From an uncultured Acidobacteriota bacterium (GTDB lineage Bacteria > Acidobacteriota > Vicinamibacteria > Vicinamibacterales > JAHECP01): a stretch of DNA of 64,000 nt. The stretch is from NCBI GenBank assembly GCA_963812185.1, contig CAWEUE010000005.1, forward strand, positions 32,405 through 96,404. Reading direction: 5' to 3'. Every line of letters begins with the position of its first letter. The first letter of the stretch is position 1. The position numbers and the translations under genes are program-made. The notes under the pieces were generated by a model that saw only the letters and a program-made list of their open reading frames with translations, made no database searches and was not told where the DNA came from. Of this stretch, positions 1-63,056 are shown one piece after another.

Positions 1-713
1 CCGAGGCCAGGAACCGCGCGTACCTCCGGCTGGCCGATGCGGAGCGCCGGGACGACCCGGCCTATCGCGCGGAGTGGAACGCGACGCACCCGCTGGGCTG
101 GGTGGAGCACCGGGAGGCGTTCTCGGACCGCGGGCGGTACGGCCGCTGGATTCGCCAGCATCTCACCGCGGTGACGATCGACCGGTACCTCTTCATGCAC
201 GGCGGGATCTCCCCGGCGCTGGCGACCAGTTCGGTGGACGAGATCAACCGGCGCGTCAGCGAGGAGATCCAGAGCGCCAGTCCGCCGGACGAGGGGCTCG
301 CGGTCGGGCGGAGCGGGCCGCTGTGGTACCGGGGCCTGGCGCAGGGGGACGAAGACGCCCTGCGGCCGCACGTGCAGCAGCTCCTGTCCACGCACGACGT
401 CGACCACATCGTGATCGGGCACACGACAGCCCCTGGAGCGGTGCTCCCGCGCTTCGGCGGCGCCGTGTTGATGATCGACGTGGGGCTGTCGAATCACTTC
501 GGTGCGCGCGCGGCCTGCCTGGTGATCGAGCGCGGCGAGGCCTTCGCGTTGCACCGCGGGCAGATGCTGCGGCTGCCCGTGAACGGGACCGCGGGCCTGG
601 TCGCCTATCTTCGGGCCGCGGCCGCGCTGGATCCGCCGCCGTCCCCGCTGGCACCCCTCATCGCCGCCGGCGGAGAGTTCCCGCTCGTCTCCGAGACGGT
701 CCGAGAGCACTGA
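1..713 (+). CDS. metallophosphoesterase (calcineurin-like), 5'-partial at window edge
   Basis: The frame is open from base 3 to the stop at 711-713. Motifs LFMHGGIS and HIVIGHTT are typical of the metallophosphoesterase fold. Confidence 0.7.
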   Translation, partial: EARNRAYLRLADAERRDDPAYRAEWNATHPLGWVEHREAFSDRGRYGRWIRQHLTAVTIDRYLFMHGGISPALATSSVDEINRRVSEEIQSASPPDEGLAVGRSGPLWYRGLAQGDEDALRPHVQQLLSTHDVDHIVIGHTTAPGAVLPRFGGAVLMIDVGLSNHFGARAACLVIERGEAFALHRGQMLRLPVNGTAGLVAYLRAAAALDPPPSPLAPLIAAGGEFPLVSETVREH

Positions 714-791
714 TCTCCTGCCTGCGGCGGCCGCGCGCCGACGTGCCTTTCGATCGCGAACGGTTCGTCGGAGTCGCGCGGCCGGCCGAGG

Positions 792-1207
792 TCAGCGGCC
801 CTGGGGCCGCGGTCTTGCGACGAAGCCGAACGTCGCCCCGACCTCGTTCTTGACGCGCACGGTGCCGCCGCCCGCCGTGACCGGCTGGATGCCGAAGTCG
901 GTCTGCTTGATCACGAGCGTGCCCGCCGCGGTGAGCCGATCCGGCCCGACCTCGACGTCGATCCCCACGGTGACCGGTCTGGTCACCCCGTGCAGCGTCA
1001 GATCGGCAACCAGCCGCAGGCGATACGTCACGAGCGCGCGCAGGGTCGCCGAAGGTGTGCGCGTTGGTCTGGAACGCGTTGTCGACGAACGTGCCACGCG
1101 TCCTGGACGACATCCTCGGCTTCGCTGGTGCTGCCGAGCATTCTGTACGCGATCGAGAACAACAGCGGCCGCTGCGCTTCGAACGTCGCCTCGTCCGTCG
1201 CTGCCAT
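792..1207 (-). pseudogene. chimeric remnant: ECF (SigJ-like) sigma factor N-terminus abutting a YceI-like C-terminal half
   Basis: A minus-strand ATG at 1207 gives MAATDEATFEAQRPLLFSIAYRMLGSTSEAEDVVQDAW (sigma-70 region 2 start), and that frame then terminates after 59 codons. From ~1092 down to 792, other frames read FVDNAFQTNAHTFG / TLRALVTYRLRLVADLTLHGVTRPVTV...IKQTDFGIQP (YceI-like), with an extra base near 1047. Confidence 0.5.
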
Positions 1208-1318
1208 GGCTCACCTCGTCTTGCGCTGCTCCTTCTCTCTAGACGAATGACGGGGACCTTCTGTGACAGCGGGGTGTCAGAGCAATCTGCCCTCAGCAGA
1301 AGAAGTCGCCATGCCAAT

Positions 1319-1855
1319 CTATCCGGGTGACTGTTGTGGTGCGACCGGCGAATCAAATGGCGAGCTCAGCACGCTTGCCATCGCCTCCGAAGACAGCCCC
1401 GAATACTCGCAGGAGACCTCGGACTCGGCCACGTCGTCGGCCGCCGTCGTCTGGACCAGCTTCCTGCCCGGATCGAGGGTGAACTTCAGCGTCGCGGTGG
1501 CGTCCGGTTCCGCCGCGAGACCCTCCGGAAGCGTGAGCGCCAGCGTCACCCGGCCGTCCCAGGCCTCCGGGGGCACGCGGGCCGGCCCGCTGGACGTCAA
1601 GGTCGCCATCGCCTCACAGGCCTCGTTCAGGCGGATCCCCGCGACGGCCAGGTTGGGCAGTCGCGCCCGGCCGACCGCCTCCAGGTTCTTGGTCGACGAA
1701 GTGGCCCTTCGCGTAGACCAGGTCGTTCCCTCATCACTCGAGACGTAGAAGGCGCCCTCGCGGCCCGCCATGACCAGCCTGGCGGCGGCGTGGGCGGCGT
1801 TCCCGGCGCAGAACACGGCCGTGAGCAGGGCCAGGCTCCGGATCACTCTCGACAT
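1319..1855 (-). CDS. secreted hypothetical protein with one BNR/Asp-box (SSDEGTTW)
   Basis: The ATG at 1855 is followed by a signal-peptide-like MSRVIRSLALLTAVFCAGNAAHA. The protein carries a single S-x-D-x-G-x-T-W motif. Confidence 0.5.
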   Translation of the reverse strand: MSRVIRSLALLTAVFCAGNAAHAAARLVMAGREGAFYVSSDEGTTWSTRRATSSTKNLEAVGRARLPNLAVAGIRLNEACEAMATLTSSGPARVPPEAWDGRVTLALTLPEGLAAEPDATATLKFTLDPGRKLVQTTAADDVAESEVSCEYSGLSSEAMASVLSSPFDSPVAPQQSPG

Positions 1856-1990
1856 GGCTTCCCCAGGGAGTGTGCAGAAGAGCACAGACCCGGCGGCGGA
1901 GACCCCGTACCATGGCTGATGTCGGAGCCGATCTGCCGAGAGGTGGCGGATCGGACGGGATTCGTGCCCGGCGAAACGGAGCGAGACACG

Positions 1991-2152
1991 ATGTCTGCCC
2001 TGAATGGCGACAGAGCGAGATTCCGGAAGCAGAGATTGGCCCGCCTGCGACGCCGCGAACGATCGCGGCTGGCGTTTGCCGCTCTCAAGGCGCGGGCCGC
2101 CCGCGCCCGGGCGCCGGACCGTTCCCTCGAGACGAAGACGGAGGCCGTATGA
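1991..2152 (+). CDS. small basic hypothetical protein (53 aa)
   Basis: ATG at 1991. Its stop overlaps the next ATG in an ATGA at 2149-2152. Codon bias is only moderate. Confidence 0.3.
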   Translation: MSALNGDRARFRKQRLARLRRRERSRLAFAALKARAARARAPDRSLETKTEAV

Positions 2153-2391
2153 CTGGATACATCAATCGCTGGACGATGGTGGGCGCGTGGGCGGTCCTGA
2201 TGGGCGTCGTGTGGGCGCTGTTCGTGCCGCACGGCGTGTCCGTCATCAACTTCGTCCTTCTCAGCCTGACCGGCGTCGTCTTCGTGGTCGCCGCTTCGGC
2301 GTTGTGGAGCGCCCACGAACCGACGCCGTCGCTCGGGCAGACGCGCGTCACGTTGGAAGCGGACGAAGCCGCCGCCAGGGCGCGGCGATGA
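2149..2391 (+). CDS. small membrane protein (80 aa, 2 predicted TM helices)
   Basis: High third-position GC. Two hydrophobic stretches are present (WAVLMGVVWALFV, VINFVLLSLTGVVFVVAASALW). ATGA overlaps link it to both neighbours. Confidence 0.5.
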   Translation: MTGYINRWTMVGAWAVLMGVVWALFVPHGVSVINFVLLSLTGVVFVVAASALWSAHEPTPSLGQTRVTLEADEAAARARR

Positions 2392-2639
2392 CGCTGCTGC
2401 CTCCGGCGCGCCTCGACGCGCGGATGCCAACGGACCGGGTTCGCCAGGCCGGGCAGGCCAGCGCGCAGCAACTCGTCACGCGCCTGCGGGGCGCGGCGGC
2501 CGAGATGGTGCCGTTCTCCGGCACGAAGACGCTGCTCCGGGAAGCCGCCTCGACAATCGAGCGGCTGGACGGCAGCGCGCGGCGTCACGCGGCCGAGCTC
2601 GATCACCTGAACGCGGAGCTGGCACAGGCGCGCCGTTGA
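2388..2639 (+). CDS. hypothetical protein (83 aa), coiled-coil-like C-terminus
   Basis: High third-position GC. The ATG at 2388 overlaps the upstream stop (ATGA). Confidence 0.45.
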   Translation: MTLLPPARLDARMPTDRVRQAGQASAQQLVTRLRGAAAEMVPFSGTKTLLREAASTIERLDGSARRHAAELDHLNAELAQARR

Positions 2640-2776
2640 CGCGCGGACGTGTGGTGCCGATCGTCTGCGCCAGGACTGCCTGAGATCTTCGGCAGCACGC
2701 GCTTCGACTCCTCATCCGACAGCCCGCGCTCCTCGCGGAGCACGCGCATCATCTCGCTCTTTCGAGCACGGTACAG

Positions 2777-5700
2777 GTGACCAAGCTCTTCCGCTGGATC
2801 TGGCCGCATCGGGCACCGCCGGCGGACAACCCGCTGCGCGACGAGCTGCTCAGCATCGAACGATTGGAGGAGCGCGCCAAAGCGCTGGCCGCCAGCTTCA
2901 TCGTCGATCCGCGGCGCCGCGCGCGCGACATCTTCCCCCGGTTCGAGGACAACGGCCGCGTCCTGCGCAGGGCGTATCGGACCCTGGCCGACGATGTGCG
3001 GCGCGGGGAGTTCATCACCGCCGCGTCGGAGTGGCTGCTCGACAACTTCTACCTGGTCACGTCCGAAATCAGGGACATCCGTCAGAACCTCCCGCGGACC
3101 TACTACCGCTCGCTGCCGACGCTCGCGCCGCGCGAGCAGGCGGGACACGCGCGGGTCTACGCGATCGCCATCGAGCTCATCCGCCACAGCGACAGCCGGC
3201 TGGACCGTCACGGGCTCACGCACTTCCTCGACAGCTATCAGCGCATCGCGCCGCTGACGATCGGGGAGCTCTGGGCCTGGCCGAGCATGCTGAAGCTGGC
3301 GCTCATCGAGAACCTGAGACGACTGGCCGACCAGACGCTGCGGGCCCGCGCCGCGCGGCGGGCCGCCGACGCCGACGTGTCGCGGATGGAGGGGCGGGCA
3401 CGCGGCCGGGCGCCGGTGCTGCCGCCCGTTCTCCATCCCGCGTACGTCGTTCAGCTGCTTCACCGCATGCGCGAATACGGTCCGCGTCTGTTGCCGTTGC
3501 ACCGCGCCGTCGAGGCGCACCTGGCTTCCCTGCAGACGACCACCGAGGACGCGGTGCGGGAAGAGAACCAGCGCGAGGCGGCCGCCCAGGTGTCGGTGGC
3601 CAACGTCGTCGCCAGCCTTCGCCTGTGCTCGACGCTCGACTGGGGGAAGTACTTCGAGGCGGTGAGCCTCGTCGAGCAGGTGCTGCAGCGCGATCCCGCG
3701 GGCGTGTACGGGCGCATGGACTTCCTGAGCCGGGACCGCCTGCGCCAGGCGGTGGAGAGCATGGCCGCGCCCGACGGCGACGCCCAGATCCGGGTCGCGC
3801 TGAAGGCGGTCGAGAACGCCCGCGAGCGGGCCGTGGACGGCTCGACCGCCGACCGCGCCGCTCACGTGGGCTACCACCTGATCGATCTGGGGCGCCGCGA
3901 CCTCGAAGCCGACGTCGCGTATCGTCCTCCTCTCGCCGGGCGCCTGCGCCGTCTCGCGTTCGCCCATGCGACCGCCGTCTACCTTGGAGCGATCGGGCTC
4001 CTGACGACGCTGCTGGTCGCCGCCGGTGTCTGGTACCTCCGGCGCGGCGGCGGGTCCCTCCCCGCGCAGGTCGCCGCGGCGCTGCTCCTCTTGCTGCCCG
4101 CGAGTGAAGTCGCGGTCTCATTCGTCCAACGTCTGGCGGCGCGTCTGGCGCCGCCGAGACGCCTGCCGCGCCTCGAGTTCGCCGGCCGGATTCCCGAGAC
4201 CGCACGCACCATGGTGATCGTGCCGACGATGCTGACGAGCGTCCAGGCCGTGGAGGCGCTCGTCGAGCATCTCGAGGTGCTCGCGCTCGGGAACCTGGAC
4301 CCGTGCATTCACTTCGCGATCCTCAGCGACTTCACCGACGCCGCCCTCCGCGACGTTCCCGGGGACGCCGCCATCCTCTCGGCCGCCCGCGCCGGCGTCG
4401 AGGCCCTCAATGCGCGGTTCGGCCCCGAGCACGCCGACCGTTTCTATCTCTTCCATCGCGCCCGGCGGTGGAACGACCGCGAACAGGCGTGGATGGGCTG
4501 GGAGCGCAAGCGCGGCAAGATCGAGGAATTCAACCGTCTGCTGCGCGGCGCGACGGACACGAGCTTCGCCGTGCAGGTCGGGCAGCGCGACATCCTGCCC
4601 ACCGTGCGCTACTGCATCACGCTCGATTCCGACACCCGCCTGCCGCGGGACGCGGCGAAGAAGCTCATCGGCATCATCGAGCACCCGTTGAACCGCCCGC
4701 AGGTCGATCGACGGCTCGGCCGCGTGACGGAGGGCTACGGCATCCTGCAGCCCCGCGTCAGCGTGACGATGGCGAGCGCGGCGGGCTCGCTCTTCGCCCG
4801 AACCTACGCCGGACATACCGGCGTGGATCCGTACACCACCGCCGTGTCGGACGTCTACCAGGATCTCTTCGAGCGAAGGCATCTTCACCGGCAAGGGCCT
4901 CTACGACGTGGACGCGTTCATCGCCGCCCTCGAGGGTCGGGTGCCCGAGAACGCGCTGCTGTCGCACGACCTGTTCGAGGGGATCTACGCGCGCACCGCG
5001 CTCGTCAGCGACGTCGAAGTGGTGGATGACTACCCGTCGAGCGTCCTCGCCCACGCGAGACGCCAGCACCGCTGGGTGCGCGGCGACTGGCAGATCCTGT
5101 GGTGGCTGTGGCCCTTCGTCCCGACCCGCGCGGGCATCGAGCGCAACCGGTTGCCGCTCATCTCGCGCTGGAAGATCCTCGACAACCTGCGGCGAAGCCT
5201 GCTGGCGCCGGCGACCGCCGCCCTGCTCCTGCTCGGGTGGACCGTGCTTCCGGGGCGCGCGGCGGCCTGGACGGCGATCGGCCTCGCGGCGATCGCCTTT
5301 CCCCTCCTCTCGCGGGCGCTGGAGACGCTCGGTGGTCCGGGCCGGGACCAGGCCTGGTCCGTGTTCCTGCGGGCCGCCGCCGACGACCTGAGGACCGCCG
5401 CCGCGCAAGCGGCCCTGCAGCTCGCGTTCATGGCCAATCAGGCGTACCAGATGCTGCACGCGATCGGCATCACGCTCGTGCGCCTCGGGATCACCCAGCA
5501 CGGGCTCCTGGAGTGGGAGACCGCGGCGGCGAGCGCCACCCGGGGCGGACCGCCCGACCTGCGCCTGTTCCTGAGGGGCATGATGGCGAGCCCGTCCATC
5601 GCCCTCGCCGGTCTCGTCCTGGTGTCGCTGGCCCAGCCGCGCGCGCTGCCCGTGGCGCTCCCCGTCCTGGCCCTGTGGGCGGCCGCGCCGTTCATCGCGT

Positions 5701-11813: not shown

Positions 11814-14504
11814 ATGGGATGGGCCCGCTTCTTCCGCCGCAGCCGATGGGACGCCGAACGGGCGCGGGAGCTCGAGGCGCACCTCGAGATCGAGACCGAC
11901 GAGCTCATCGCGCGCGGCGTGGCGCCCGACGAGGCCCGGTGGGCCGCGCAGCGCAAGCTGGGGAACCCGCTCCGGATTCGCGAGGAGATCTACGAGATGA
12001 ACACGCTCGCCCTTGTCGAGACCATCTGGCAGGACCTCCGCTACGCGGCGAGACGGCTGCGACACGACCGCGCCTTCACGGCGGTGGCCCTGCTGTCGCT
12101 CATGCTGGGCATCGGCGCCAACACCGCGATCTTCCAGCTGCTCGACGTCGTGCGCCTGCGATCGCTGCCGGTCAAGGACCCGAGCCAGCTCGTGGAGGTG
12201 CGGCCCGCCGGCACCCAGCCACGCCCCGGCAACGTCATCACCCGGTACGCCCAGCTGACCAACCCGCAGTGGGAGCGGCTCCGCGCCGACCAGCGGGCGT
12301 TCTCCAGCATGCTGGCGTGGGCGCCGATGCGTCTCAATCTCGCGGCGGGCGGCGAGGTCAGATACGCGCAGGCCATCCTCGTCAGCGGCGGCTTCTTCGA
12401 GATGCTCGGCGTGTCGGCGTCCCGCGGCCGCCTCCTCGGCGCCGCCGACGACCAGCGCGGCTGCGGCTCGCGCGCGGCGGTCATCAGTGACGCGTTCTGG
12501 CGGCGCGAGTACGGCGGCGCCCCGGACATCGTCGGGCGTCCGATCCGGCTGGAGCACCAGGCGTTCGACATCGTGGGCGTCACGCCGGCGGGCTTCTACG
12601 GCGTCGAGGTGGGCCGCCAGTTCGACGTGGCGGTCCCGATCTGCGCGGCCGCGGTGCTTCGCGGCGACTCCGGCCTGCTCGACGACAGCTTCAACTGGTG
12701 GCTCTCCGCCATGGGACGCCTTCGTCCCGGCTGGTCGGTCGAACAGGCGACCGCGCAGCTGCAGGCGATCTCCCCGGCCCTGTTCCGGGAGACGGCGTCG
12801 GAGCGCCTGGATCCGGAACAGGTCGAGGTGTACCGGAAGTACCGGTTGGAGGCCGTCCCGCGCGGCGGCGGCTTCTCCTCGCTGCGCACGAGGTACGAGG
12901 CGCCGCTGTGGCTGCTCCTTGGACTGTCCGCGCTCGTCCTGCTCGTGGCGTGCGCCAATCTCGCCAACTTGCTGCTGGCGAGGGCGGGCGCCCGCACGCG
13001 TGAGATGGCCGTGCGCCTGGCCATCGGCGCGTCGCGCGGCCGGGTGGTGCGCCAGCTGCTGTCCGAGAGCCTGTTGCTGGCCGCCATCGGCACGCTGCTG
13101 GGCGCCATCCTGGCACGCGAGATCAGCGCCCTGCTGGTCAGGTTCCTGAGCACCGGCCGCGATCCGCTGTCCGTGCCCATCGCCCTCGACTGGCGACTCC
13201 TCGCCTTCACGGCGGCGACGGCGCTCGCGACGACGATGCTCTTCGGGCTCGCGCCGGCGCTGCGCGCGACCTCGGCGCCGCTCGAGTCGGTGATGCGCAT
13301 GAGCAGCCGGGGGCTGAGCGCGGGCCGCGGGCGGTCCGGGTGGCAGCGCGGGCTCGTCGTGGCGCAGGTCGCCCTGTCGCTCGTGATGGTCCTGGTCGCC
13401 CTGCTCTTCACGCTCAGCCTGCGCAACCTGACCGGAGTGAACACCGGTTTCAGCGGCGACAACCTGGCGGTGGCCGACATCGACTTCGGCGGCGCCGCGA
13501 TTCCCGTCGAGCGGCGGCTGCCCCTGCAGCGCGAGCTGGTCGACGGCGTGCGGTCGATTCCCGGCGTGACATCCGCGGCCCAGGTGTCCATCGTGCCGCT
13601 CGGCGGGTGGAGCTGGCGAGACGAGGTGCGGCTGGAGGAGCGCCCCGAGACGCCTCTCCCCGCCAGCTTCAATGCCGTGAGCGCGCGGTACTTCGAGACG
13701 ATGCGGATACCGCTCGCCGCGGGGCGTGATTTCGACGATCGCGACACCAGCGGATCGCCTGCCGTCGCGATCGTCAATCAGACGTTCGCCCGGCGCTATC
13801 TCAAAGGCCTGCCGGTCATCGGGCAGCGGATTCAGATACGGACCGGACCGCAGCAGTGGTCGACCATGGAGATCGTCGGCCTGGTGAACGACACGACCTA
13901 CGCCGATCTGAGGCAGCCGTTCCCGCCGATCGTCTACAGGGCCGCGGCGCAGGAGCGCGACCCCGGCACGGACCTTCGCGTCGTGCTGCGATCGGGGCTG
14001 TCGCTGGCCGGGGTGCGGTCCGCGGTCGCGAAGATGGCCGCGAGCCACGATCCCCGGATCACGTTGAGCTTCCGCGCCTTCCCGACCATGGTGCGCGAGA
14101 CGCTCCTGCGGGACTGGCTGATGGCCACCCTGTCGGGGTTCTTCGGCGTGCTGGCCATCGTGCTGGCCAGCATCGGGCTCTACGGCGTGATGGCCTACAT
14201 GGTGGCCCGCCGCCGAAGCGAGATCGGCATCCGTCTCGCGCTCGGAGCCAGCCGGCGATCCATCGTCCGGATGGTGATGCGAGAGGCCATCGTCCTGGTG
14301 GGCATCGGCCTGGCGCTCGGCGCCCTGCTGGCGCTGGTCGCGTCCAGGGCGGCGACGGCGATGCTGTTCGACGTGAGGCCGACCGATCCGATCGCCGTCA
14401 CCGCCGCCGTCGGTCTGCTGACGACGGTCGGGTTCATCGCCAGCTACCTGCCCGCCCGCCGGGCCGCGCGGCTTCAGCCCACGCACGTCCTCCCGGAGGA
14501 CTGA
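11814..14504 (+). CDS. ADOP-family duplicated FtsX/MacB-type ABC permease (896 aa)
   Basis: The N-terminal MGWARFFRRSRWDAERARELEAHLE extension is followed by WQDLRYAARRLRHDRAFTAVALLSLMLGIGANTAIF. It has two FtsX-like TM bundles and is intact over 2.7 kb. Confidence 0.85.
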   Translation: MGWARFFRRSRWDAERARELEAHLEIETDELIARGVAPDEARWAAQRKLGNPLRIREEIYEMNTLALVETIWQDLRYAARRLRHDRAFTAVALLSLMLGIGANTAIFQLLDVVRLRSLPVKDPSQLVEVRPAGTQPRPGNVITRYAQLTNPQWERLRADQRAFSSMLAWAPMRLNLAAGGEVRYAQAILVSGGFFEMLGVSASRGRLLGAADDQRGCGSRAAVISDAFWRREYGGAPDIVGRPIRLEHQAFDIVGVTPAGFYGVEVGRQFDVAVPICAAAVLRGDSGLLDDSFNWWLSAMGRLRPGWSVEQATAQLQAISPALFRETASERLDPEQVEVYRKYRLEAVPRGGGFSSLRTRYEAPLWLLLGLSALVLLVACANLANLLLARAGARTREMAVRLAIGASRGRVVRQLLSESLLLAAIGTLLGAILAREISALLVRFLSTGRDPLSVPIALDWRLLAFTAATALATTMLFGLAPALRATSAPLESVMRMSSRGLSAGRGRSGWQRGLVVAQVALSLVMVLVALLFTLSLRNLTGVNTGFSGDNLAVADIDFGGAAIPVERRLPLQRELVDGVRSIPGVTSAAQVSIVPLGGWSWRDEVRLEERPETPLPASFNAVSARYFETMRIPLAAGRDFDDRDTSGSPAVAIVNQTFARRYLKGLPVIGQRIQIRTGPQQWSTMEIVGLVNDTTYADLRQPFPPIVYRAAAQERDPGTDLRVVLRSGLSLAGVRSAVAKMAASHDPRITLSFRAFPTMVRETLLRDWLMATLSGFFGVLAIVLASIGLYGVMAYMVARRRSEIGIRLALGASRRSIVRMVMREAIVLVGIGLALGALLALVASRAATAMLFDVRPTDPIAVTAAVGLLTTVGFIASYLPARRAARLQPTHVLPED

Positions 14505-20925: not shown

Positions 20926-20990
20926 AGGTGTGCGCTACGAAAGAGCAGGTGACGTGGCGCAGGGCTTCAGCCCTGCGCCGTGAGGGCGCA
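20926..20990. repeat. degenerate single copy of the 72-bp triple-hairpin repeat unit
   Basis: AAGGTGTGCGCTACGAAAGAGCAGGTGACGTGGCGCAGGGCTTCAGCCCTGCGCCGTGAGGGCGCA aligns with GGTCTGCGCTACGTACGGAAGATGGTACGTAGCGCAGGGCTTCAGCCCTGCGTCGTGCGGCGCA at 42.2-42.4 kb. Confidence 0.65.
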
Positions 20991-21099
20991 CACCTCGGTG
21001 CCCGCGCCACGCGAGGAGGGCTGGGTCGGGCGACGTTCGTCCTCTTGTGGCGGCACGGTGAGTGTGTTAAGAGGAGAGAGCCTTCGAGCCCGATCGCCC

Positions 21100-22477
21100 A
21101 TGAGTCACGCACTGCGAATCCTCTGCATCGGCGCCGGCTACGTCGGGGGACCCACCATGGCGGTGATCGCCGATCGCTGTCCCCACATCCGGGTCACAGT
21201 GACCGACGTCAACCACCAGCGGATCGAGGCGTGGAACAGCGACGCCCTGCCCATCTACGAGCCGGGCCTGGACGCGGTCGTGCGCCGGGCGCGGGGGCGC
21301 AATCTCTTCTTCTCGACCGACGTCGCGACCGGCATCCGGGAGGCCGACGTGATCTTCGTGTCGGTCAACACGCCGACCAAGTCCTTCGGGGAGGGGGCCG
21401 GCCGCGCGGCCGATCTGCAGGTACTGGGAGAAGACGGCGCGCGAGATCGTCGCGCACGCGGATGCGGGCAAGATCGTCGTCGAGAAGTCGACGCTGCCGG
21501 TCCGGACCGCGGCCGCGATGACGCGCATTCTGGCGTCGAACCGCAAGGGCCTCGAGTTCCAGATCCTGTCGAATCCGGAGTTCCTCGCCGAGGGCACGGC
21601 CATCCGCGACCTCGAGGAGCCCGACCGGGTGCTGATCGGCTCGGAGGAGACCGCCGCCGGCCTCGAGGCCCGCCGCACGCTGGTCGAGCTCTACGCGACC
21701 TGGGTCCCGCGTGACCGGATCATCGAGTCCAGCGTCTGGAGCGCGGAGCTGTCGAAGCTGACGGCCAACGCGTTCCTCGCGCAGCGGATCTCGTCGATCA
21801 ACGCGATCTCCGCGCTGTGCGAGCAGGCCGGCGCCGACGTGGCGGAAGTCGCCCACGCGATCGGCACCGACTCGCGGATCGGACCGAAGTTCCTCAGGGC
21901 GAGCGTCGGCTTCGGCGGGTCGTGCTTCAAGAAGGACATCCTGAACCTGGTGTACATCGCGCAGGGCTACGGCCTGCAGGAGGTTGCCGACTACTGGGAA
22001 TCCGTCATCCGCATGAACGAGTGGCAGCAGGCCCGCTTCGTCCGCACCATGGTGGCCAGCATGTTCAACACGGTGGCGGGTAAGCGCATCGCGCTGTTCG
22101 GCGTCGCGTTCAAGGCCGACACCAGCGACACGCGCGAGTCGCCGGCGCTGGCGGTGGCGCGCGGGCTGCTCGCCGAGCACGCCCGCGTCGTGATCACCGA
22201 TCCCAGGGCGCTCCCGACGGCACGCGTGGATCTCGCCGACGCCAAGGGACGCGTCGAGTTCGAGGACGATCCCTACAAGGCCGCTGCCGGCGCCCACGCC
22301 ATTGCGGTCCTGACCGAGTGGGGCCTCTATCGGGGCCTCGACTTCCGGCGGATTCTCGACTCGATGGAGCAGCCCGCGTTCGTGTTCGATGGGCGCAACG
22401 TCCTCGATCACGCGGCGCTCTTCGAGATGGGGTTCAACGTATTCCCCGTCGGCCAGGCGCCGCTCCGGCACGTCTGA
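21100..22477 (+). CDS. ugd: UDP-glucose 6-dehydrogenase (eukaryote-like UGDH type); +1 frameshift at 21421
   Basis: [35 protein letters not shown] | [19 protein letters not shown] and [14 protein letters not shown] are present. Confidence 0.88.
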
Positions 22478-22497
22478 GGCGGTCCGCCGGGCCCGCG

Positions 22498-22797
22498 CTA
22501 CCCGCCGGCAATCGCGCCGATGATCAGGAAGGGCTCGCGGCCGCTCGCCACCTCGTCCGGCAGCGGCGCGTCCGGCGGGTCGTGCGAGACGTCCTGGGAA
22601 CAGGCGAAGTAACGCACGAACGGCCGGCGGCGCAGGGAGACGTGATCGCGGATCGTGCCCTGCAGCACGGGGTAGCGCGCCTCCAGCGCGTCGAGGATCG
22701 CGCGCGGCGTCGCGGCGCCTTCCACCTCGACCGCGACCTCGCCGTTCACCCGCACCAGCGTCTTCAGGTGCGCCGGCAGCTCCACACGGATGGTCAT
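22498..22797 (-). CDS. MoaD/ThiS-family ubiquitin-like protein ending in Gly-Gly
   Basis: 99 aa with a C-terminal ...IIGAIAGG*. The length and GG terminus fit sulfur-carrier / Ubl proteins. Confidence 0.7.
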   Translation of the reverse strand: MTIRVELPAHLKTLVRVNGEVAVEVEGAATPRAILDALEARYPVLQGTIRDHVSLRRRPFVRYFACSQDVSHDPPDAPLPDEVASGREPFLIIGAIAGG

Positions 22798-22819
22798 GGT
22801 GTAACTCTGTCAGTCGTCA

Positions 22820-22929
22820 GTTGTGAGTTGTGAGTCATGAGTTATGAGTTGTGAGTTCTGAGTTATGAGCGACTCAGGACTCAGAACTCAGAACTCACGA
22901 CTCGGAACTCAAGACTCAAGACTCACAAC
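22820..22929. repeat. palindromic heptamer array: 7 x GTTNTGA, centre gcgac, 8 x TCANNAC
   Basis: Read directly from the sequence. It is markedly AT-richer than its surroundings and fills most of the 141-nt gap between two co-oriented genes. It places TGA in all three frames on both strands. Confidence 0.85.
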
Positions 22930-22938
22930 CAACGTCAG

Positions 22939-24051
22939 CTACAACGTCTGCACCTCCACCGACAACACGGCCGGCAGGTCGCGGACGATCGGCGCCCACG
23001 AGTCGCCGGCGTCGTGCGACGCGTACACCTGCCCGCCCGTCGTGCCGAAGTACACGCCGCACGGGTCCATCCGGTCCACGGCCATCGCGTCGCGCAGCAC
23101 GTTCACGTAGCAGTCCTGCTGCGGCAGCCCGTTCGTGAGCGCCTCCCACTCGTCGCCGCCCGTGCGGCTGCGGTACACGCGCAGCTTGCCGTCGGGCGGG
23201 TAGTGCTCGGAGTCGCTCGTGATCGGGACGACGAAGATCGTCTCGGGCTCGTGGGCGTGGACGTCGATCGTGAAGCCGAAGTCGGAGGGCAGGTTGCCGC
23301 TCACTTCCCGCCACTGGTCGCCGCCGTTGTCGCTGCGCATGACGTCCCAGTGCTTCTGCATGAACAGCACGTCGGGCCGCGACGGGTGCCGGGCGATGCG
23401 GTGCACGCAGTGGCCGACCTCGGCCGCCGGCTCCGGCAGGAACTGCGAGTGGAGCCCGCGGTTGATCGGCCGCCACGTCTTCCCGCCGTCGTCGGTGCGG
23501 AACGCGCCGGCGGCGGAGATCGCCACGACGATCCGTTCGCGGCTCGCCGGGTCGAGCAGGATCGTGTGCAGGCACAGCCCGCCGGCGCCCGGCTGCCAGC
23601 GCGAGCCCGTGCCGTGGCCGCGGAGGCCGGCGAGCTCGTGCCACGTCGCGCCGCCGTCGGTCGTGCGGAAGAGCGCGGCGTCCTCGACGCCCGCGTAGAC
23701 CGTGTCGGGGTCGTCCGGCGAGGGCTCGAGGTGCCAGACCCGCTTGAACTCCCACGGGTGCGGCGTGCCGTCGTACCACTGGTGCGTGCCGGGCACGCCG
23801 TCGTAGACGAACTTGTTGCCGACCGCCTCCCACGAGCGGCCGCCGTCGTTCGACCGCTGCATGAGCTGGCCGTGCCAGCCGGTGGACTGCGACACGTACA
23901 GGCGGTTCGGGTCGGCCGGCGACCCGGCGAAGTGGTAGATCTCCCAGCCGCCGAAGTGAGGGCCGCTCACGTCCCAGCGCGCGCGCGCGCCGTCGGCGGT
24001 GAGCACGAACGCGCCCTTGCGCGTCCCGACGAGGACACGGACCCCGCTCAT
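22939..24051 (-). CDS. BNR/Asp-box beta-propeller protein (sialidase-like / Ycf48-like fold)
   Basis: Repeated S/T-x-D-x-G-x-(T/S)-W boxes are present: [40 protein letters not shown]. There is no signal peptide. Confidence 0.75.
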
Positions 24052-24141
24052 GTCGATCTCCTTTGGCTCACGTGACGGGTGTAGGACTGATGTTGCGCCG
24101 GGGGCCGGCGCGTCGTCAAGAGGGAGGGATCACGGGACAGG

Positions 24142-24561
24142 TCATGAGGCCGACCCCACGGCGTCGCCGTGAGCCGCGTCCTCCACCGGCGGCCGGATGG
24201 CCTTCCGCTCCTTGAGGAAGAGGGCGACGGTGTCCGCGGCGGCGACCACCAGCAGGACGGCGCCGACCCAGGTTCGCCAGCCACCCACCTGCTCCGGTCG
24301 GGCGAGGACCGTGTTGAGGAGGCCGACGATCCAGAACAGCACCGTGCGCTGGACGTGCCAGACATCCTTGGCGCCGCCGGCGCGGTGCAGCCGCCGGCTC
24401 AGCTGAACGACGTTCCAGAGGATCGCCAGCGAGACGGCGCCGATGACGGCATAGTCGATGAAGGTGCGATCCCCGGCGCTCAGGTCGAGCACCCAGTAGA
24501 GGACCGCGCTCGCAAGGCAGGCGTTGACGACCTGCGACTCAACCCTCTTCTTCATCTTCAT
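24142..24561 (-). CDS. membrane protein (139 aa, 4 TM), hypothetical
   Basis: Hydrophobic helices and good codon bias. Confidence 0.55.
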   Translation of the reverse strand: MKMKKRVESQVVNACLASAVLYWVLDLSAGDRTFIDYAVIGAVSLAILWNVVQLSRRLHRAGGAKDVWHVQRTVLFWIVGLLNTVLARPEQVGGWRTWVGAVLLVVAAADTVALFLKERKAIRPPVEDAAHGDAVGSAS

Positions 24562-24592
24562 CGTTCGGTCTCCGTCTGGCTCGTGGCTCGTT

Positions 24593-24904
24593 CTAGTCGG
24601 GCAGCGTCTCGAGCAGCGCGCTCATCTCCGCCTTGTAGGCGCGCAGCGCCGCGCGTCCTTTCCCCGTGAGCGCATAGACGGTGCGCGGCCGGTTGGCGAC
24701 GAAGCTCTTCTCGATCTCCACCAATCCCGCCTCGGCGAGCTTGGTCATCTGCACCGACAGGTTGCCGCGGCTGAGGCCGGTCTGCCGCAGCAGGTACACG
24801 AAGTCGGCCCGCTTGATCGCCGAGAGGAACACGAGCAGCCGCAGCCGTACCAATTCGTGCAGGAATGCGTCGACGCGCGGGACCGGCGGCTTGACGTCGT
24901 GCAT
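24593..24904 (-). CDS. winged-helix transcriptional regulator (ArsR/MarR-like)
   Basis: FLHELVRLRLLVFLSAIKRADFVYLLRQTGLSRGNLSVQMTKLAEAGLVEIEK. Confidence 0.7.
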   Translation of the reverse strand: MHDVKPPVPRVDAFLHELVRLRLLVFLSAIKRADFVYLLRQTGLSRGNLSVQMTKLAEAGLVEIEKSFVANRPRTVYALTGKGRAALRAYKAEMSALLETLPD

Positions 24905-35837: not shown

Positions 35838-35974
35838 CCGCGGGCGACCCGGGCGCGAGAAGGGCGACCTTCGCGGTGGTCCGGCCGCTGGACCAGACGG
35901 CGGAGCTGGGCCGCGCGAGTGCTCCTACAATATCCGCACCCGCTCATCCGTCTACACCCATAGAAGCAGGCCCC

Positions 35975-36038
35975 GCCTTCGCCGCAGCTACGGCGGGGCA
36001 GGCGGCGCCTTCGCGGCAGCTACGGCGGGGCAGGCGGC
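35975..36038. repeat. tandem duplication, 2 x 32 bp (GCCTTCGCSGCAGCTACGGCGGGGCAGGCGGC)
   Basis: There is one mismatch between the units. It ends 16 nt before the ECF sigma ATG. Confidence 0.85.
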
Positions 36039-36054
36039 GGCGAGTTGGGAGCCG

Positions 36055-37306: not shown

Positions 37307-37329
37307 CCCTACACCCGACTACACTCGAC

Positions 37330-39790
37330 TCACGTCCGCACGCGAACGACGACGCCCGACGAGCCGTCGACGCGGACGACGTCTCCGTCGCGCAGCAGGC
37401 GCGTGACGCCGTCGATGTTCGCGACGCACGGAATGCCGTACTCGCGCGCGACGATCCCGGCGTGACTGAGCGCCCCGCCGATCTCGACGACAACGCCGGC
37501 GGCCCGCGCGAAGAGCGGCGTCCAGGCCGGGTCGGTGGCGGGCGCGACGAGCACCGCTCCGGCCGGGAACCGCGGGCTCTCGACCGGCGACGCGAGCACG
37601 CAGACCTCGCCTTCCACGACACCCGGGCTGATGCCGTTGCCCCGCAGGACCGCGGGGCCGGCGCCGTCCGGCGGGTCGAGAAGGGCCATCGACGCAATCT
37701 CCTCGCTCGTGAAGCGGTTCGGCACCTCGATGCGGCGCCAGGCCGCGACGCGCGTCCGTTCCCTGGCCACGGCGACGTCGGCGGCGAAGGCCGCGTCGGT
37801 CACGGCGCGCGTCAGCTCGTCGAGGCTCAGGCGCCAGACGTCCTCGCGCGCGCGCAGCCGGCCCCGCGCGGTGAGCCTGCTTCCCAGCTCGAGCCCGACA
37901 CGGCGCAGCCGCGTGATGACCTTGACCACCGCGCTCCGCAAGAGCTCCCGCAGCGCCATGAGCCGTTTGAGATCGCCGACGCCACGCTCGACCCGGCGGC
38001 GCGCCGCGGGCCCGCACAGCCGCTCGACTTCCTTCCAGGCCTGCGCGGAGTCCAGGCGGCGCCGCTCGCGGCTCGACTCGGCCGGCGGTCCCTCCAGGAT
38101 TATGGGGAACAACACGCGCGCCAGCTCTCGCAGGTCCTCACCGTAACGCGGGTAGGAGAGGTCGCTCTCGAACGGCCCCCGGTGGCCGTAGCGGGCGAGC
38201 CACTGCTCCACCTCCTGCCAGAGCCCGGCGGGAAGCCCGTCTTGCCAGTAGCGGGCGGCCGCGTGGGCCGGCGTCACCGCGCGCGCGAACGCGCCGGCTC
38301 CGCCCCATGTGCGCATCGAGTCGGCCAGCGCGAGCAGATCGTCCAGCTGCTGCGAAGAGACCGACAGCGTCCCGCCGGCCAGGAGGCGCGCGAGCAGGGC
38401 CCGCGGCGTGGGATGCGCGCGCAGCTTCATCAGCACGTTGTACTGAACGTTCGTCATGACGCCGGCGACGGTGATGGCGTGGACCGCCCACTGGCGCGGC
38501 ATGCCGCCGGCGAGCTCGCCGAGCAGGTCGAGCAGCTGCCGGTCGTCCGCCGCCGCAACGTCCACCGCCGCCAGCCGGCCTTCGATCTCGTCCATCCTCG
38601 AGATGAAGCCGGTCGCGTCGCGCTCGGCCCGTACCCACACCGCGAGGGCGCGCAGCAGGAGGCCGGGATGACGCAGGAGCTTCGTCATCTTCACCGGCGC
38701 CACGCGGTCGTCGGGCTGCGCCGAGCCGCCGAACTCGGCCTGCGTCGCCTGCTGCGAGACGCCGAAGAGCTCGGCGACCGCGAAGATCCGCTCGTTGAAG
38801 ACGGGGCGCCCGTGAACGGTCGTGAAGAGCGGCACCTCGGCGTCCGATTCGAAGGCGGTAGCGGTGCAGGATGTCCCGCTCCGCCCCGTCGAGCGCGGGG
38901 CAGAGCACCGAGCGCGCGAACGCCGAGGGGATGTCGGGGAGGACGTCGCGAACGTTCGCCCGCGTCCAGGTTTCGCCGGCGGGGACGTCCGCCTGGAGGG
39001 GGCGCGTCGCGGGCCGCGCCTGCAGGAACCACAGCGCGCCGCCGGCGCAGGCCCACTCGACGTCGAGGGGGCGGCCGGCGAGCCGCTCGAGGCGGTCGAC
39101 GCCGTCGGCCAGCTCGCCCGCGAGGCGGTCGTCGAGGACGCGGCCGTGCTGGCGGTCCGGCGCGAGCGGGACGCGAGCGAGGCGCTGGTTGCGGAGCGTG
39201 ACCGCGTGCGTCTGCGTCGGCGCCGTTCGGCGCTCCACCCGCCAGTCCGTGCCGGCGCGGCGCATGACGAGCGCCTCGGGCGTCGCCTGGCCGTCCACTG
39301 CCGTCTCGCCGAGCCCGATGACGGCCTCGACGACCACCCGATCGCCGCCCGCGCCGAACGCGACGCCCGCGCACTCGCTCGGGATCATCTCCTGGACGAT
39401 CACGCCGCACGGGCCGGTGGGCGGCGGGAGGCCGAGCTGCCCGCGATAGGCGCGCGCGCGACTGGACAGGGCCGATGCGGCCACCCGGCGGATCGCGTCC
39501 TGAAGCCCTTCGAGCCGGACCCCCAGCAGCGTGTCGTGGATGCCGGCGAAGCTGGAATCGCGCGCGTCCTCGTCACCCGCGGAGCTCCGCACGGCGAACA
39601 GGTCGCGGCCGCCGCGCTCGAGTGTCGCTTCGAGCCGCCCGATCTCCTCGCGCGACGCGCCGGGCAGCACGACCCACGCCGGCGGCACGGGCAGGCGCGC
39701 GCGCATGACGAGCTGCAACCCCCGGGCCTTGCCGCCGGCCGCGGCCGGCGGCAAGGCCTCCGAATCGAGGCGTAGGATGCGCGAGTCCAT
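37330..39790 (-). CDS. PEP-utilising enzyme with rifampicin-phosphotransferase-like architecture (N-terminal ATP-grasp/PPDK_N, C-terminal swivel His domain); +1 frameshift at 38860
   Basis: AAGGKARGLQ, VRSSAGDEDARDSSFAGIHDT and DVEWA mark the N-terminal part. The C-terminal region is GISPGVVEGEVCVL...ATDPAWTPLFARAAGVVVEIGGALSHAGIVAREYGIPCV. Confidence 0.8.
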
Positions 39791-42175: not shown

Positions 42176-42204
42176 CAGGGTCAGCGCCGGGCCGCCGCCT
42201 CGAA

Positions 42205-42419
42205 GGGCTTGAGCCCTGCGCCGTGCGGCGCAGACCTGAAGGTCTGCGCTACGTACGGAAGATGGTACGTAGCGCAGGGCTTCAGCCCTGCGTCGTGCGG
42301 CGCAGACCTGAAGGTCTGCGCTACGTACGGAAGATGGTACGTAGCGCAGGGCTTCAGCCCTGCGTCGTGCGGCGCAGACCTGAAGGTCTGCGCTACGTAC
42401 GGAAGATGGTCTGCGCTAC
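42205..42419. repeat. tandem array of a 72-bp unit (2 full copies + 62 nt + restart), each unit made of three perfect hairpins
   Basis: Units run 42205-42276, 42277-42348 and 42349-42410. The three hairpins are CGCAGGGC-TTCA-GCCCTGCG, GCGCAGACC-TGAA-GGTCTGCGC and CTACGTAC-GGAAGATG-GTACGTAG. The acylase stop codon (42416-42418) lies inside the last partial unit. Confidence 0.9.
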
Positions 42420-47368: not shown

Positions 47369-47407
47369 CCAGGGTCGGGTGGCCCAGGTCTCCGACCAGG
47401 GCCGCTC

Positions 47408-47432
47408 TGGCACAGGTCAGAGACCTGTGCCA
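47408..47432. repeat. perfect 11-bp hairpin TGGCACAGGTC-aga-GACCTGTGCCA
   Basis: It lies between the transglutaminase-like stop and the ABC ATPase start, with no U-tract. Confidence 0.5.
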
Positions 47433-47467
47433 CCGGAAGGCGGCGTATGGGGTGGGAACCCCTTGAC

Positions 47468-60632: not shown

Positions 60633-63056
60633 ATGCACGCCCTGTGGAGCGACTGGCGGCTCGCCGCCCGAAGCCTGCGCCGCGCGCCGGGCTTCACGGC
60701 GGTCGTCGTCCTGACGCTCGCCCTCGGCATCGGCCCGACCACGGCGATCTTCAGCGTCGTGTACGGCGTGCTGCTGCGGCCGTTCCCGTACCGCGCGCCG
60801 GAGTCGCTCGTCGTGATCTCGGCCGAGCGCACGTTCGCCGGCCAGGTGCGGGGCGCGAACTACTCGGCGCGCGAGCTCGACGGGTGGCTGGCGCGGGCGC
60901 GCGCGTTCTCGTCGCTCGGCATGTGGGGCGGAACCGGGTACAGCCTGCGCACGGACGCGGGCACGCAGACCGTCGGCGCCGCCTACGTGTCGGACGGCTT
61001 CTTCGCGACGCTGGGCGTGCCGATGGCGCTCGGCCGCGCCATCGGCCCGGCGGACGCCGGCTCGCCGGTCGCCGTCGTCAGCCATCGGCTGTGGCGGCGC
61101 GAGCTCGGGTCGAGCCCGCAGGCCGTCGGCCGGTCGATCCGGCTCAACGGCCAGCCCTACACCGTCATCGGCGTCGCCCCGCCCGACTTCCGGTTTCCGT
61201 CCGAACGGGACGACGTGTGGACGCCGCTCGCCTACGCGCAGCGGCTCGGCCGCGAGCCGTGGGTGAACAACCCGGCGGGTGGCGGGTTCCATCTCGTCGG
61301 CCGGCTGCGCCCGGGCGTGACGCTGGCGGCCGCGCGTGACGACGCCGCGCGCGTGGCCCGCGCGATGGCGCCGGAGTTCGCGAGAATCAGCGGCGGGCGG
61401 CGGCCGCTCCTCTTCACGTTGGTCGGCTGGTTCACCGACACGACGAGACCCGCGCTGCTGATGCTCGCCGCCGCGGTCGGGCTCGTGCTCGTCGTCGCGT
61501 GCGCCAACACCGTCAACCTGCTGTTCGCCCGGCAGACGTCCCGCTCGCAGGAGATCGCCGTGCGCCGGGCGCTCGGCGCGCCGCCGTCGCGTCTGCTGTC
61601 GTCGGCGCTCGCCGAGGCCTCGCTCGTGGCCCTGGCCGGCGGCGGCGCGGGCGTGCTGCTGGCGGTCGGGGGCGTGAGGGCGCTGTTGTCGCTGTGGCCG
61701 GCCGGGCTGCCGAGGGTGGACGCCATCCGCGTGGACGGCCCGGTGCTGGCCTTCGCGCTGGCGCTGTCGATGGGGCTGGCGCTGGCGTGCGCGATCGGTC
61801 CCGGGGTCCGCGCGCTCGGCTACCGCCTGGCGGCGGGGTTGCGGCCGGCCGGCGCCGCCTCCACGCGCCGCGGCCGCCGCCTCCGCTCGGCGCTCGTCGT
61901 CGTGCAGATCGCCGCGTCGGTGATCCTGCTGGTCGGGGCGGGCCTCCTGGGCCGCAGCTTCGTCCGCCTGCTGCGGTCGGACGTCGGCGTCGGGACCAAC
62001 CGCGTCGCCCTCGCGGACCTGGCCTTGAGCGTCGACCGACAGGTCTCGCCCGCCATCCAGGTCGAGACGGTCGATCGCGTGCTGGACGGCGTTCGTCGGA
62101 TCCCCGGCGTCGTGCGCGCGGGCGTGGGCACCAGCCTGCCGCTCTACGGCGCCCGCTTCCGCTACACGCTGAAGGGCGTGCAGACGGGCGACGGCCCGCC
62201 GCGGGACTACGACGTGGACGCGATCGCCGTGACGCCCGGCTTCTTCGCGGCGCTGGAGCTGCCGCTCCTGCGCGGGCGGCTGTTCACGGACGGCGACACC
62301 GCGGCGAGCCCGCCGGTGATGATCATGAGCGCCCGCACCGCGCGGCGGTTCTTCGGCGACCGCGACGCGATCGGACGCACGCTGTCGCTGCCGACCGCCG
62401 GCGGGCCGGGCCGCGCCGCCGCGACCCTCGTGGGCGTCGTCGGCGACGTCAAGTACAACGCGCTCGACGCCGCCGCCGACGGCGGGATCTACCGCCCGTA
62501 CACGCAGCAGGCGTATCAGTACGTGTACCTGGCCGCGCGCACGGCGGGCGACCCGCGCGCCGTCGGCGGCGCCCTCCGCCGCGCCGTGGCGGCCGTGGAT
62601 CCGTCGATTGCGGTGGACCACGTGCGGACCTTCGACGACGAGGTGGCAAGCGCTTCGGCGGAGCCGCGGTTCCGCACGCTGCTGCTCGTCGCGCTCGCGG
62701 CGCTCGCGCTCGCGGTCGCGTCGGTGGGGCTCTACGGCGCCGTCGCCTACTCCGTGTCGCTGCGCCGGACCGAACTGGGGATCCGTGTGGCGCTGGGCGC
62801 GACGCCGGCGAACCTCGTGCGGCTGGTCGTCCGGGAGGGCATGGCGCTCGCGTGTGTGGGCGCCGGGATCGGCGTGGCGGGCGCCGCGGTCCTCTCGCGG
62901 GTGCTCCAGCGCTTCCTGTACGGCGTCACGCCGCACGACGCGGTGTCGCTGCTCGCCGCGCCCACCGGGCTGCTGCTCCTCGCCGCGCTGGCCAGCTACG
63001 TGCCGGCGCGCCGCGCGGCCGCGGCCGATCCGATCGCCGCGCTCAGGCGCGAGTGA
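60633..63056 (+). CDS. ADOP-family duplicated FtsX/MacB-type ABC permease (807 aa)
   Basis: WRLAARSLRRAPGFTAVVVLTLALGIGPTTAIF, two FtsX-like bundles, intact. No recognisable PadR gene lies upstream. Confidence 0.85.
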   Translation: MHALWSDWRLAARSLRRAPGFTAVVVLTLALGIGPTTAIFSVVYGVLLRPFPYRAPESLVVISAERTFAGQVRGANYSARELDGWLARARAFSSLGMWGGTGYSLRTDAGTQTVGAAYVSDGFFATLGVPMALGRAIGPADAGSPVAVVSHRLWRRELGSSPQAVGRSIRLNGQPYTVIGVAPPDFRFPSERDDVWTPLAYAQRLGREPWVNNPAGGGFHLVGRLRPGVTLAAARDDAARVARAMAPEFARISGGRRPLLFTLVGWFTDTTRPALLMLAAAVGLVLVVACANTVNLLFARQTSRSQEIAVRRALGAPPSRLLSSALAEASLVALAGGGAGVLLAVGGVRALLSLWPAGLPRVDAIRVDGPVLAFALALSMGLALACAIGPGVRALGYRLAAGLRPAGAASTRRGRRLRSALVVVQIAASVILLVGAGLLGRSFVRLLRSDVGVGTNRVALADLALSVDRQVSPAIQVETVDRVLDGVRRIPGVVRAGVGTSLPLYGARFRYTLKGVQTGDGPPRDYDVDAIAVTPGFFAALELPLLRGRLFTDGDTAASPPVMIMSARTARRFFGDRDAIGRTLSLPTAGGPGRAAATLVGVVGDVKYNALDAAADGGIYRPYTQQAYQYVYLAARTAGDPRAVGGALRRAVAAVDPSIAVDHVRTFDDEVASASAEPRFRTLLLVALAALALAVASVGLYGAVAYSVSLRRTELGIRVALGATPANLVRLVVREGMALACVGAGIGVAGAAVLSRVLQRFLYGVTPHDAVSLLAAPTGLLLLAALASYVPARRAAAADPIAALRRE

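Follow-up and report, generated by a model that had tools for sequence, protein, structure and literature searches.

The intergenic element at 22820-22929 of the window (the whole 64-kb stretch of DNA analyzed here) is a heptameric simple-sequence repeat (SSR) of the convergent-pair type, a class already described, and comparison with close relatives indicates that it is a young, hypervariable 142-nt insertion at a junction where the stop and start codons of two genes formerly overlapped. Assignment to the class follows from period-7 arrays beyond chance expectation, from their position near the end of the upstream ORF, from units that vary among relatives, and from the convergent pairing of the arrays, while the insertion reading follows from an intact ATGA empty site in one relative together with carriers whose units differ. 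Because the variable positions change without compensation and a near-identical strain lacks the element, we favor, with moderate confidence, a near-neutral origin in slippage-prone heptamer-repeat dynamics over a selected regulatory device.

A heptad palindrome between two minus-strand genes

The features of the junction are listed below in transcript order, with the basis of each in parentheses (L205, L206 and L207 are contigs of close relatives).

22939-24051, minus strand: BNR/Sortilin-Vps10-type beta-propeller gene, 370 aa, ending ...VEVQTL (ORF list; Pfam PF02012, PF15902)
22939-22941, minus strand: TAG, the new stop codon of BNR, given by the first three bases of the insert (comparison with orthologues)
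22800-22941, minus strand: 142-nt insert, flanked by the TTG codon of Leu370 and the relic CC-ATGA (window against L207)
22815-22934, minus strand: predicted 49-bp imperfect RNA hairpin (RNA fold)
22874-22929, minus strand: 5' arm in the mRNA, eight units GTYNTGA, G/U-rich (sequence, TRF)
22869-22873, no strand assigned: five central nt at the hairpin loop, reading GTCGC on the minus strand, identical in L205 (sequence, fold)
22820-22868, minus strand: 3' arm in the mRNA, seven units TCANNAC, A/C-rich (sequence, TRF)
22800-22819, minus strand: degenerate terminal units TGACGAC TGACAGA GTTACA (identical in L205 and L206)
22794-22799, minus strand: relic CCATGA of the ancestral overlap, now holding the MoaD start codon alone (L207, orthologues)
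22498-22797, minus strand: MoaD/ThiS-like ubiquitin-fold gene, 99 aa, C-terminal GG (ORF list; homologue names)

Read on the plus strand, seven GTTNTGA-type heptads (22820-22868) are followed by gcgac (22869-22873) and by eight TCANNAC-type heptads (22874-22929), exactly the 7 + 8 palindrome around a 5-nt center that the initial annotation had described. Both arrays have period 7 in TRF, with 7.3 copies at 22819-22869 and 7.9 copies at 22871-22925, and their units are regularly spaced and keep five invariant positions in every 7 nt. The pattern GAGTYNTGAGTYNTGAGT, with up to two mismatches allowed, gives 14 matches in the 64-kb window, all of them inside 22811-22931, against 0.03 expected from shuffles. 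No second array of the heptad pattern occurs in the window, and a stretch at 37312-37330 that had been put forward as related has period 10, does not match the pattern and is unrelated to the element. The center of the element reads CTGAGTCGCTCAT and its flank TGACGACTGACAGAGTTACA, and the arms lie on opposite strands in convergent orientation. In the direction of transcription the non-coding array begins 9 nt past the BNR stop codon, and its 5' arm holds TGA in all three sense frames; the broader statement that TGA falls in three frames on both strands agrees with the sequence, as does the AT-richness remarked upon earlier (GC 0.53 in the element against 0.60-0.79 across 20-26 kb).

The flanking genes share the minus strand, the BNR gene lying upstream and the MoaD-like gene downstream. 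The BNR protein has thousands of homologues at about 80% identity; the 99-aa protein has no Pfam match, a weak match to SAMP1, and homologues named at source as MoaD/ThiS or sulfur-carrier proteins. A sigma-70 promoter consensus was not found in the gap, nor was any intrinsic terminator in 22300-24700 (0 sites), with a T-run after the hairpin absent on both strands, and this lack of consensus signals in the gap, combined with the ancestral 4-nt overlap, suggests that the two genes are co-transcribed. The 20 nt 5' of the MoaD-like start contain no Shine-Dalgarno-like sequence (GACUGACAGAGUUACACC-AUG). A 14-codon uORF, running from an AUG at 22838 in the 3' arm to a UGA that overlaps the MoaD AUG, was treated as a chance occurrence since it is not conserved in L205, where TCATAAC replaces TCATGAC in the arm.

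Convergent with the MoaD-like gene lies a UDP-glucose 6-dehydrogenase gene (20980-22477, plus strand), which one frameshift divides into two ORFs; the frame changes near 21412-21420, around ...AADL, and the split reflects either a pseudogene or an assembly indel error. Several duplicated MacB_PCD/FtsX permeases are present at 11814-14504 and 60633-63056 of the window and at 307-3025 of a relative's contig (L204), where the permease adjoins a PadR regulator, a gene content typical of Acidobacteriota or Gemmatimonadota and in agreement with the source names of the closest BNR homologues. The window also holds other repeats. At 42201-42410, immediately downstream of a penicillin-amidase gene, the intergenic DNA holds 2.9 copies of a 72-bp unit (98% identity); the unit is composed of short G+C-rich hairpins (AGGGCTTCAGCCCT, GCGCAGACCTGAAGGTCTGCGC, TACGTACGGAAGATGGTACGTA), and the whole looks like a REP-like tandem. 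This tandem and the heptad palindrome are the longest short-spacer inverted repeats in the window. The arms of an inverted repeat between two ORFs at 47375-47437 are 29 nt long, 83% complementary and joined by a 5-nt loop, and a 32-bp unit is repeated 2.3 times at 92% identity at 35966-36039.

A polymorphic insertion at a stop/start overlap

Four short contigs of other samples (L204, L205, L206 and L207) were reached through the 90% cluster of the MoaD-like protein; their MoaD gene is about 96% identical to that of the window. Two of these, the independent assemblies L205 and L206, carry the same palindrome directly 5' of MoaD and have in common with the window the center gtcgc and the right flank TGACGAC TGACAGA GTTACAC C ATG. 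The units themselves vary, with eight TCA-units in L205 against seven in the window and differing variable bases in both arms, and even L205 and L206, whose MoaD genes are 100% identical, hold two and three copies, respectively, of the terminal TCACAAC. The contigs L205 and L206 stop inside the array and L204 stops 3 nt short of the start codon, breaks that are short-read assembler behavior at such a repeat.

The fourth contig, L207, matches the carriers L204-L206 at 99.5% identity through 600 nt downstream, yet reads ...GTGGAGGTGCAGACACTGCC followed immediately by ATGACCATT, so that the end of BNR leads directly into the ATGA overlap, with nothing inserted. Judged from carriers L205 and L206 against the empty L207, presence of the element is thus polymorphic among near-identical strains. 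The MoaD protein of L207 is identical to that of the window, and the 13 synonymous and 0 nonsynonymous differences between the genes indicate that MoaD is still under purifying selection. The MoaD variable sites of the window, L205 and L207 are star-like apart from an L205/L207 patch at 153-219, and therefore do not fix the order of gain and loss of the element. Within that patch of 66 nt fall 9 of the 11 differences between the L205 and L207 MoaD-like genes, which bring about four amino-acid changes, and the patch, lying beside the polymorphic element, looks like a small recombination or gene conversion.

Aligning the filled with the empty site also shows what the junction has lost. BNR orthologues end in ...TLP-TGA or similar, and the window BNR protein is minus its terminal residue. 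The cistrons are now 141 nt apart and the ATGA coupling is gone, and the GGAGG that the BNR 3' end contains has moved from 13 nt before the MoaD start (empty site) to about 155 nt before it (window). Neither a target-site duplication nor defined termini were identified between filled and empty sites, the sole local repeat at the insert being GACGTTG, present twice, 12 nt apart, at the left end; the empty site of L207 contains no heptad seed.

A metagenome scan with the BNR protein returned 80 loci at 74-83% identity, and in 75 of them the MoaD-like gene lies directly downstream. The MoaD start codon overlaps the BNR stop in 63 of these 75 junctions (...CC ATGA TC... or GTGA), and the ancestral junction is therefore a stop/start overlap of 4 nt, as is classic for translationally coupled genes. 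In the 12 remaining junctions 5-68 nt separate the two genes, and several of these spacers include a clear ribosome-binding site of the GGAG type. Heptads are present at none of the 75 junctions. The initial annotation had suggested looking for a comparable element at orthologous MoaD/BNR pairs, and none is there; it had also listed a small inserted element among several possible roles, an option that gains from this absence and from the empty ATGA site in L207. Absence at orthologous loci together with a lack of processing or structure signals in transcripts had been taken in advance as pointing to a neutral local expansion, and of this pairing the orthologue part is what the 75 junctions display.

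Relatives whose MoaD-like protein is 80-86% identical to that of the window have lost the overlap in other ways. In two of them (L211 and L208) the genes are separated by 141 nt of G+C-rich sequence that includes GGGAGG, MoaD starts with GTG, and the spacer has no significant structure (z 0.06 in L211). At 2290-2500 of L209, and likewise in L210, a 211-nt spacer, with arms made up of GTKCYTG-like heptads, forms a long hairpin (-112.5 kcal/mol, z -5.4), and at 3625-3857 of L202, whose BNR protein is 88% identical to that of the window, a 233-nt spacer consists of one long non-heptad hairpin (-138.9 kcal/mol, z -8.05); in both L202 and L209 the hairpin spacer continues with GGGAGG and then a GTG start. 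All three spacer types in these relatives place a strong ribosome-binding site before MoaD, whereas the window spacer has none. The BNR/MoaD junction has acquired hairpin-forming spacers repeatedly in this clade.

Overall, the locus provides a before-and-after comparison made by nature: strains that are nearly identical either have or lack a 142-nt self-folding repeat at a junction that is ATGA in most relatives, which allows translational coupling, ribosome-binding context and a long intercistronic hairpin to be weighed for the downstream gene.

A predicted intercistronic hairpin

On the minus (transcribed) strand the 141-nt gap folds as RNA at -74.6 kcal/mol (z -8.4), and its 49 pairs form stems of 4-14 bp split by internal loops of 1-2 nt at the variable heptad positions; the prediction matches the imperfect hairpin of about 50 bp that had been anticipated from the letters. 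The plus-strand RNA of the gap folds similarly (-76.2 kcal/mol, z -8.9), and the corresponding single-stranded DNA hairpin is predicted at -41 to -45 kcal/mol. The predicted RNA hairpin takes up 120 of the 141 nt and is set off from the BNR stop by 4 nt and from the MoaD start by 17 nt. No Rfam 15 model matches anywhere in the window at the gathering threshold; below threshold, eukaryotic miRNA-precursor models alone match, as they do with any long hairpin.

The variable heptad positions are mismatched in the stem and differ between carriers without compensation, so no selection on the helix is apparent beyond what the design of the unit would yield automatically. Identity as an intrinsic (Rho-independent) terminator was rejected, as 22300-24700 holds no terminator-like site and no U-tract follows the hairpin. 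A role in bringing the in-gene GGAGG near the MoaD start was rejected as well, the single-stranded path of 18 + 17 nt being too long for Shine-Dalgarno function.

These features suggest how a long insert might persist at such a site. The insert would loop itself out of the bicistronic RNA and leave stop and start about 21 single-stranded nt apart, and the G/U-rich arm, which comes first, would stop read-through in every frame; self-folding and all-frame stops together would make a long insert tolerable at the junction. Any effect would be to lower or retune MoaD translation relative to BNR, and the hairpin may be a target of RNase III.

Arrays of the same unit in other genomes and the polarity of inverted pairs

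By our own arithmetic, chance would yield four TGAGTYN units in a row about 0.1 times in a 596-Gb genome collection, and a scan of that collection for TGAGTYN x4 returned at least 120 loci. Among the matches listed these belong mostly to Cyanobacteria, Bacteroidota, Chloroflexota, Acidobacteriota and Planctomycetota, with cultured isolates included. Other heptamer families often adjoin the TGAGTYN arrays, as with the CCCCAGT arrays beside ACTCAAA arrays at the cyanobacterial loci examined.

Inverted pairs were scored with a symmetric definition, a chain of at least four units plus an opposite-strand chain of at least two units within 400 nt, in which the polarity of the window is TGAGT array first and ACTCA array second, an order that reads alike on both strands. 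Among the genome matches listed, inverted pairs occur at 25 loci, 25 with the window polarity and 0 with the opposite one. In an independent sample of 79 viral-contig loci the counts are 10 and 1, and the lone locus of opposite polarity also holds pairs of the window polarity, which brings the combined figure among the loci listed (L001-L120 and L212-L290) to 35 loci against 1. Direct scanning of viral contigs for palindromes of 3 + 3 units found 0 in either polarity and so carries no polarity information. By crude ORF calls, 16 of 19 inverted pairs lie between co-directional ORFs, and the upstream ORF ends -10 to +27 nt from the G-rich arm, a proximity that is partly forced because the arm stops every frame.

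Such strict pair polarity across phyla (35 against 1 among the loci listed) shows some constraint beyond neutral slippage. Single arrays downstream of ORFs are found in sense orientation 51 times and in antisense 28 times, a bias too weak to explain the polarity of the pairs. Folding back of the G/T-rich DNA strand was considered as a cause and rejected, since neither arm folds alone as DNA (0 to -1.6 kcal/mol); as RNA, the G/U-rich arm alone folds weakly. Pairing might instead hide the arm that is C-rich and G-poor and that, left unpaired, would serve for Rho loading in operons, or the polarity might arise from RNA- and RNase III-dependent repeat growth, as proposed for hmw. That convergent heptad palindromes with the G-rich, all-frame-stop arm first form a cross-phylum self-folding class, with polarity expressing a real constraint or function, is a proposal we advance only tentatively and regard as distinctly unlikely. 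If the class is real, the window element would be a caught-in-the-act case at a formerly coupled gene junction. The 35:1 polarity, which has no agreed explanation, is perhaps worth more than the locus.

Competing explanations

One alternative is that the element is a selected intercistronic RNA device, in which RNase III cleavage or a block to exonucleases or ribosomes would set the stability or translation of BNR relative to MoaD and the number of units would tune the ratio. A predicted 49-bp imperfect dsRNA is compatible with this, and the (ATCTTTC)n hairpin in the hmw 5'-UTR of H. influenzae, which is cut by RNase III and controls expression (PMC12721329), makes an RNase III site at the element plausible by analogy. 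The element is moreover kept in two diverged lineages, about 4% apart, and other long hairpins occupy the same junction in the sister contigs L209 and L202, so that selection for an intercistronic hairpin could be at work. Against it stand the absence of the element from near-identical L207 and from the 75 orthologous junctions, a 141-nt spacer in L211 without significant structure, and a stem in which pairing of the variable positions is not maintained, and overall we hold selection for such a device to be rather unlikely. The near-neutral reading has its own difficulties in the polarity of pairs across phyla and in an empty site without a heptad seed. That last point, along with clean presence and absence around an intact empty site, palindromic form, and other palindromic inserts at the same junction in relatives, would fit transposition into the junction of a small non-autonomous mobile element (a MITE, REP or REPIN-like hairpin) with the heptads as its terminal inverted repeats. 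Yet there is a single copy in 64 kb with no target-site duplication or defined termini identified, the arms change between strains by whole units as an SSR does, and in other genomes comparable elements have unrelated loops and flanks, all of which makes transposition improbable.

An action at the level of DNA, through an array bound by a heptad-recognizing protein or through a cruciform or replication-pausing structure affecting local transcription, could draw on the regular 7-nt spacing with five invariant positions per unit, on the energy of the predicted ssDNA hairpin (-41 to -45 kcal/mol), and on the binding proteins proposed for the heptamers of Nostoc and Beggiatoaceae (10.1101/2022.06.06.494920; PMC4679880). 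We consider it very unlikely, there being no candidate protein, no promoter-like site nearby and no second array in the window to hint at a regulon, and polymorphism between near-identical strains speaks against a needed site. An assembly artefact of the source genome might be suspected from the frameshift in the neighboring gene, which could be a sequencing error, and from the short-read contigs of relatives that break at the element, but the same center and flank recur in the independent assemblies L205 and L206 from other samples, which already refute it in practice, and arrays of the TGAGTYN unit are found in many isolate genomes; the chance of an artefact is accordingly negligible. Near-neutral growth of a slippage-prone heptamer repeat remains the reading we prefer. 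Of the interpretation first attached to the element, the predicted hairpin and the inserted element have held up; of its further suggestions, an RNase III processing site is plausible by analogy with hmw, and the results speak neither way on a protein-binding array.

Comparison with known systems

Among bacterial repeats in non-coding DNA, the STRR heptanucleotide repeats of heterocystous cyanobacteria (Mazel et al. 1990) reportedly consist of tandem heptamers with several unit families side by side. They are highly abundant in each genome and have served mainly for fingerprinting; the window element differs from them in unit and in phylum. REP/BIME and Correia-type elements form dispersed families of conserved sequence, REP with a cognate RAYT transposase. 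The window element resembles these as an intercistronic inverted repeat folding in mRNA, of a kind able to influence stability or to serve as an RNase III substrate, and differs from them in its single copy (64 kb), its SSR units and its variation in unit number.

The (ATCTTTC)n hairpin of the hmw 5'-UTR of H. influenzae is a substrate of RNase III, and the hairpin is required both for expression and for change in repeat number (Rapun-Araiz et al. 2025, PMC12721329). Common to both systems are a transcribed heptamer SSR within a long imperfect hairpin upstream of a gene and a varying number of repeats, whereas hmw has a non-repeat G-rich second arm, lies in a 5'-UTR and has experimentally demonstrated RNase III cleavage and effects on expression, and the window has two array arms at an intercistronic site with a predicted hairpin.

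In the TAACTGA arrays of marine Beggiatoaceae, Cyanobacteria and Bacteroidetes every frame contains a stop, and the arrays lie just upstream of start codons (MacGregor 2015, PMC4679880). Shared with the window are intergenic heptamers, all-frame stops in the "forward" orientation, a scattered distribution across phyla and strain-specific changes in 7-nt steps, and TAACTGA is one base away from the TAACTCA variant present in the window element. In Beggiatoaceae, in contrast, TAACTGA occurs as direct repeats of 2-6 copies, most of them ending no more than a few nt from a start codon, with only one inverted set in the genome studied, and TAACTCA was not found there as a direct repeat (PMC4679880). 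Membership in the Beggiatoaceae TAACTGA type was rejected, the window unit being NRACTCA/GTYNTGA, inverted, and 17-22 nt from the start codon.

Heptanucleotides are, according to Mrazek et al. 2007 as cited in PMC4679880 and PMC4692102, the most abundant long SSRs in most prokaryotic genomes, with slippage proposed as their cause. In Nostoc, heptamer repeats near start codons have been proposed to be regulatory (10.1101/2022.06.06.494920). The GGGAATC arrays of Xanthomonas are 89-93% intergenic and lie mostly between ORFs of the same direction, on average 28 nt from the 5' ORF (against 9 nt in the window), with 70-75 convergent pairs per genome that have stem-loop potential (PMC4692102). Most of them are transcribed, their length and sequence vary among close relatives, and no function was identified for them (Rehm et al. 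2015, PMC4692102). The window element shares with these arrays and with the GGGGAYT SSRs of Nostoc the intergenic 7-nt tandem arrays, convergent pairs and strain variation (PMC4692102). Unlike theirs, its unit GTYNTGA cannot form G-quadruplexes, its host is an uncultured soil-type bacterium of roughly 70% GC with one locus in 64 kb, and its insertion point is an ATGA-coupled junction with a documented empty site. The element thereby adds an uncultured high-GC lineage and the unit TGAGTYN to the heptameric palindromes, which have been described mainly in Xanthomonas and cyanobacteria.
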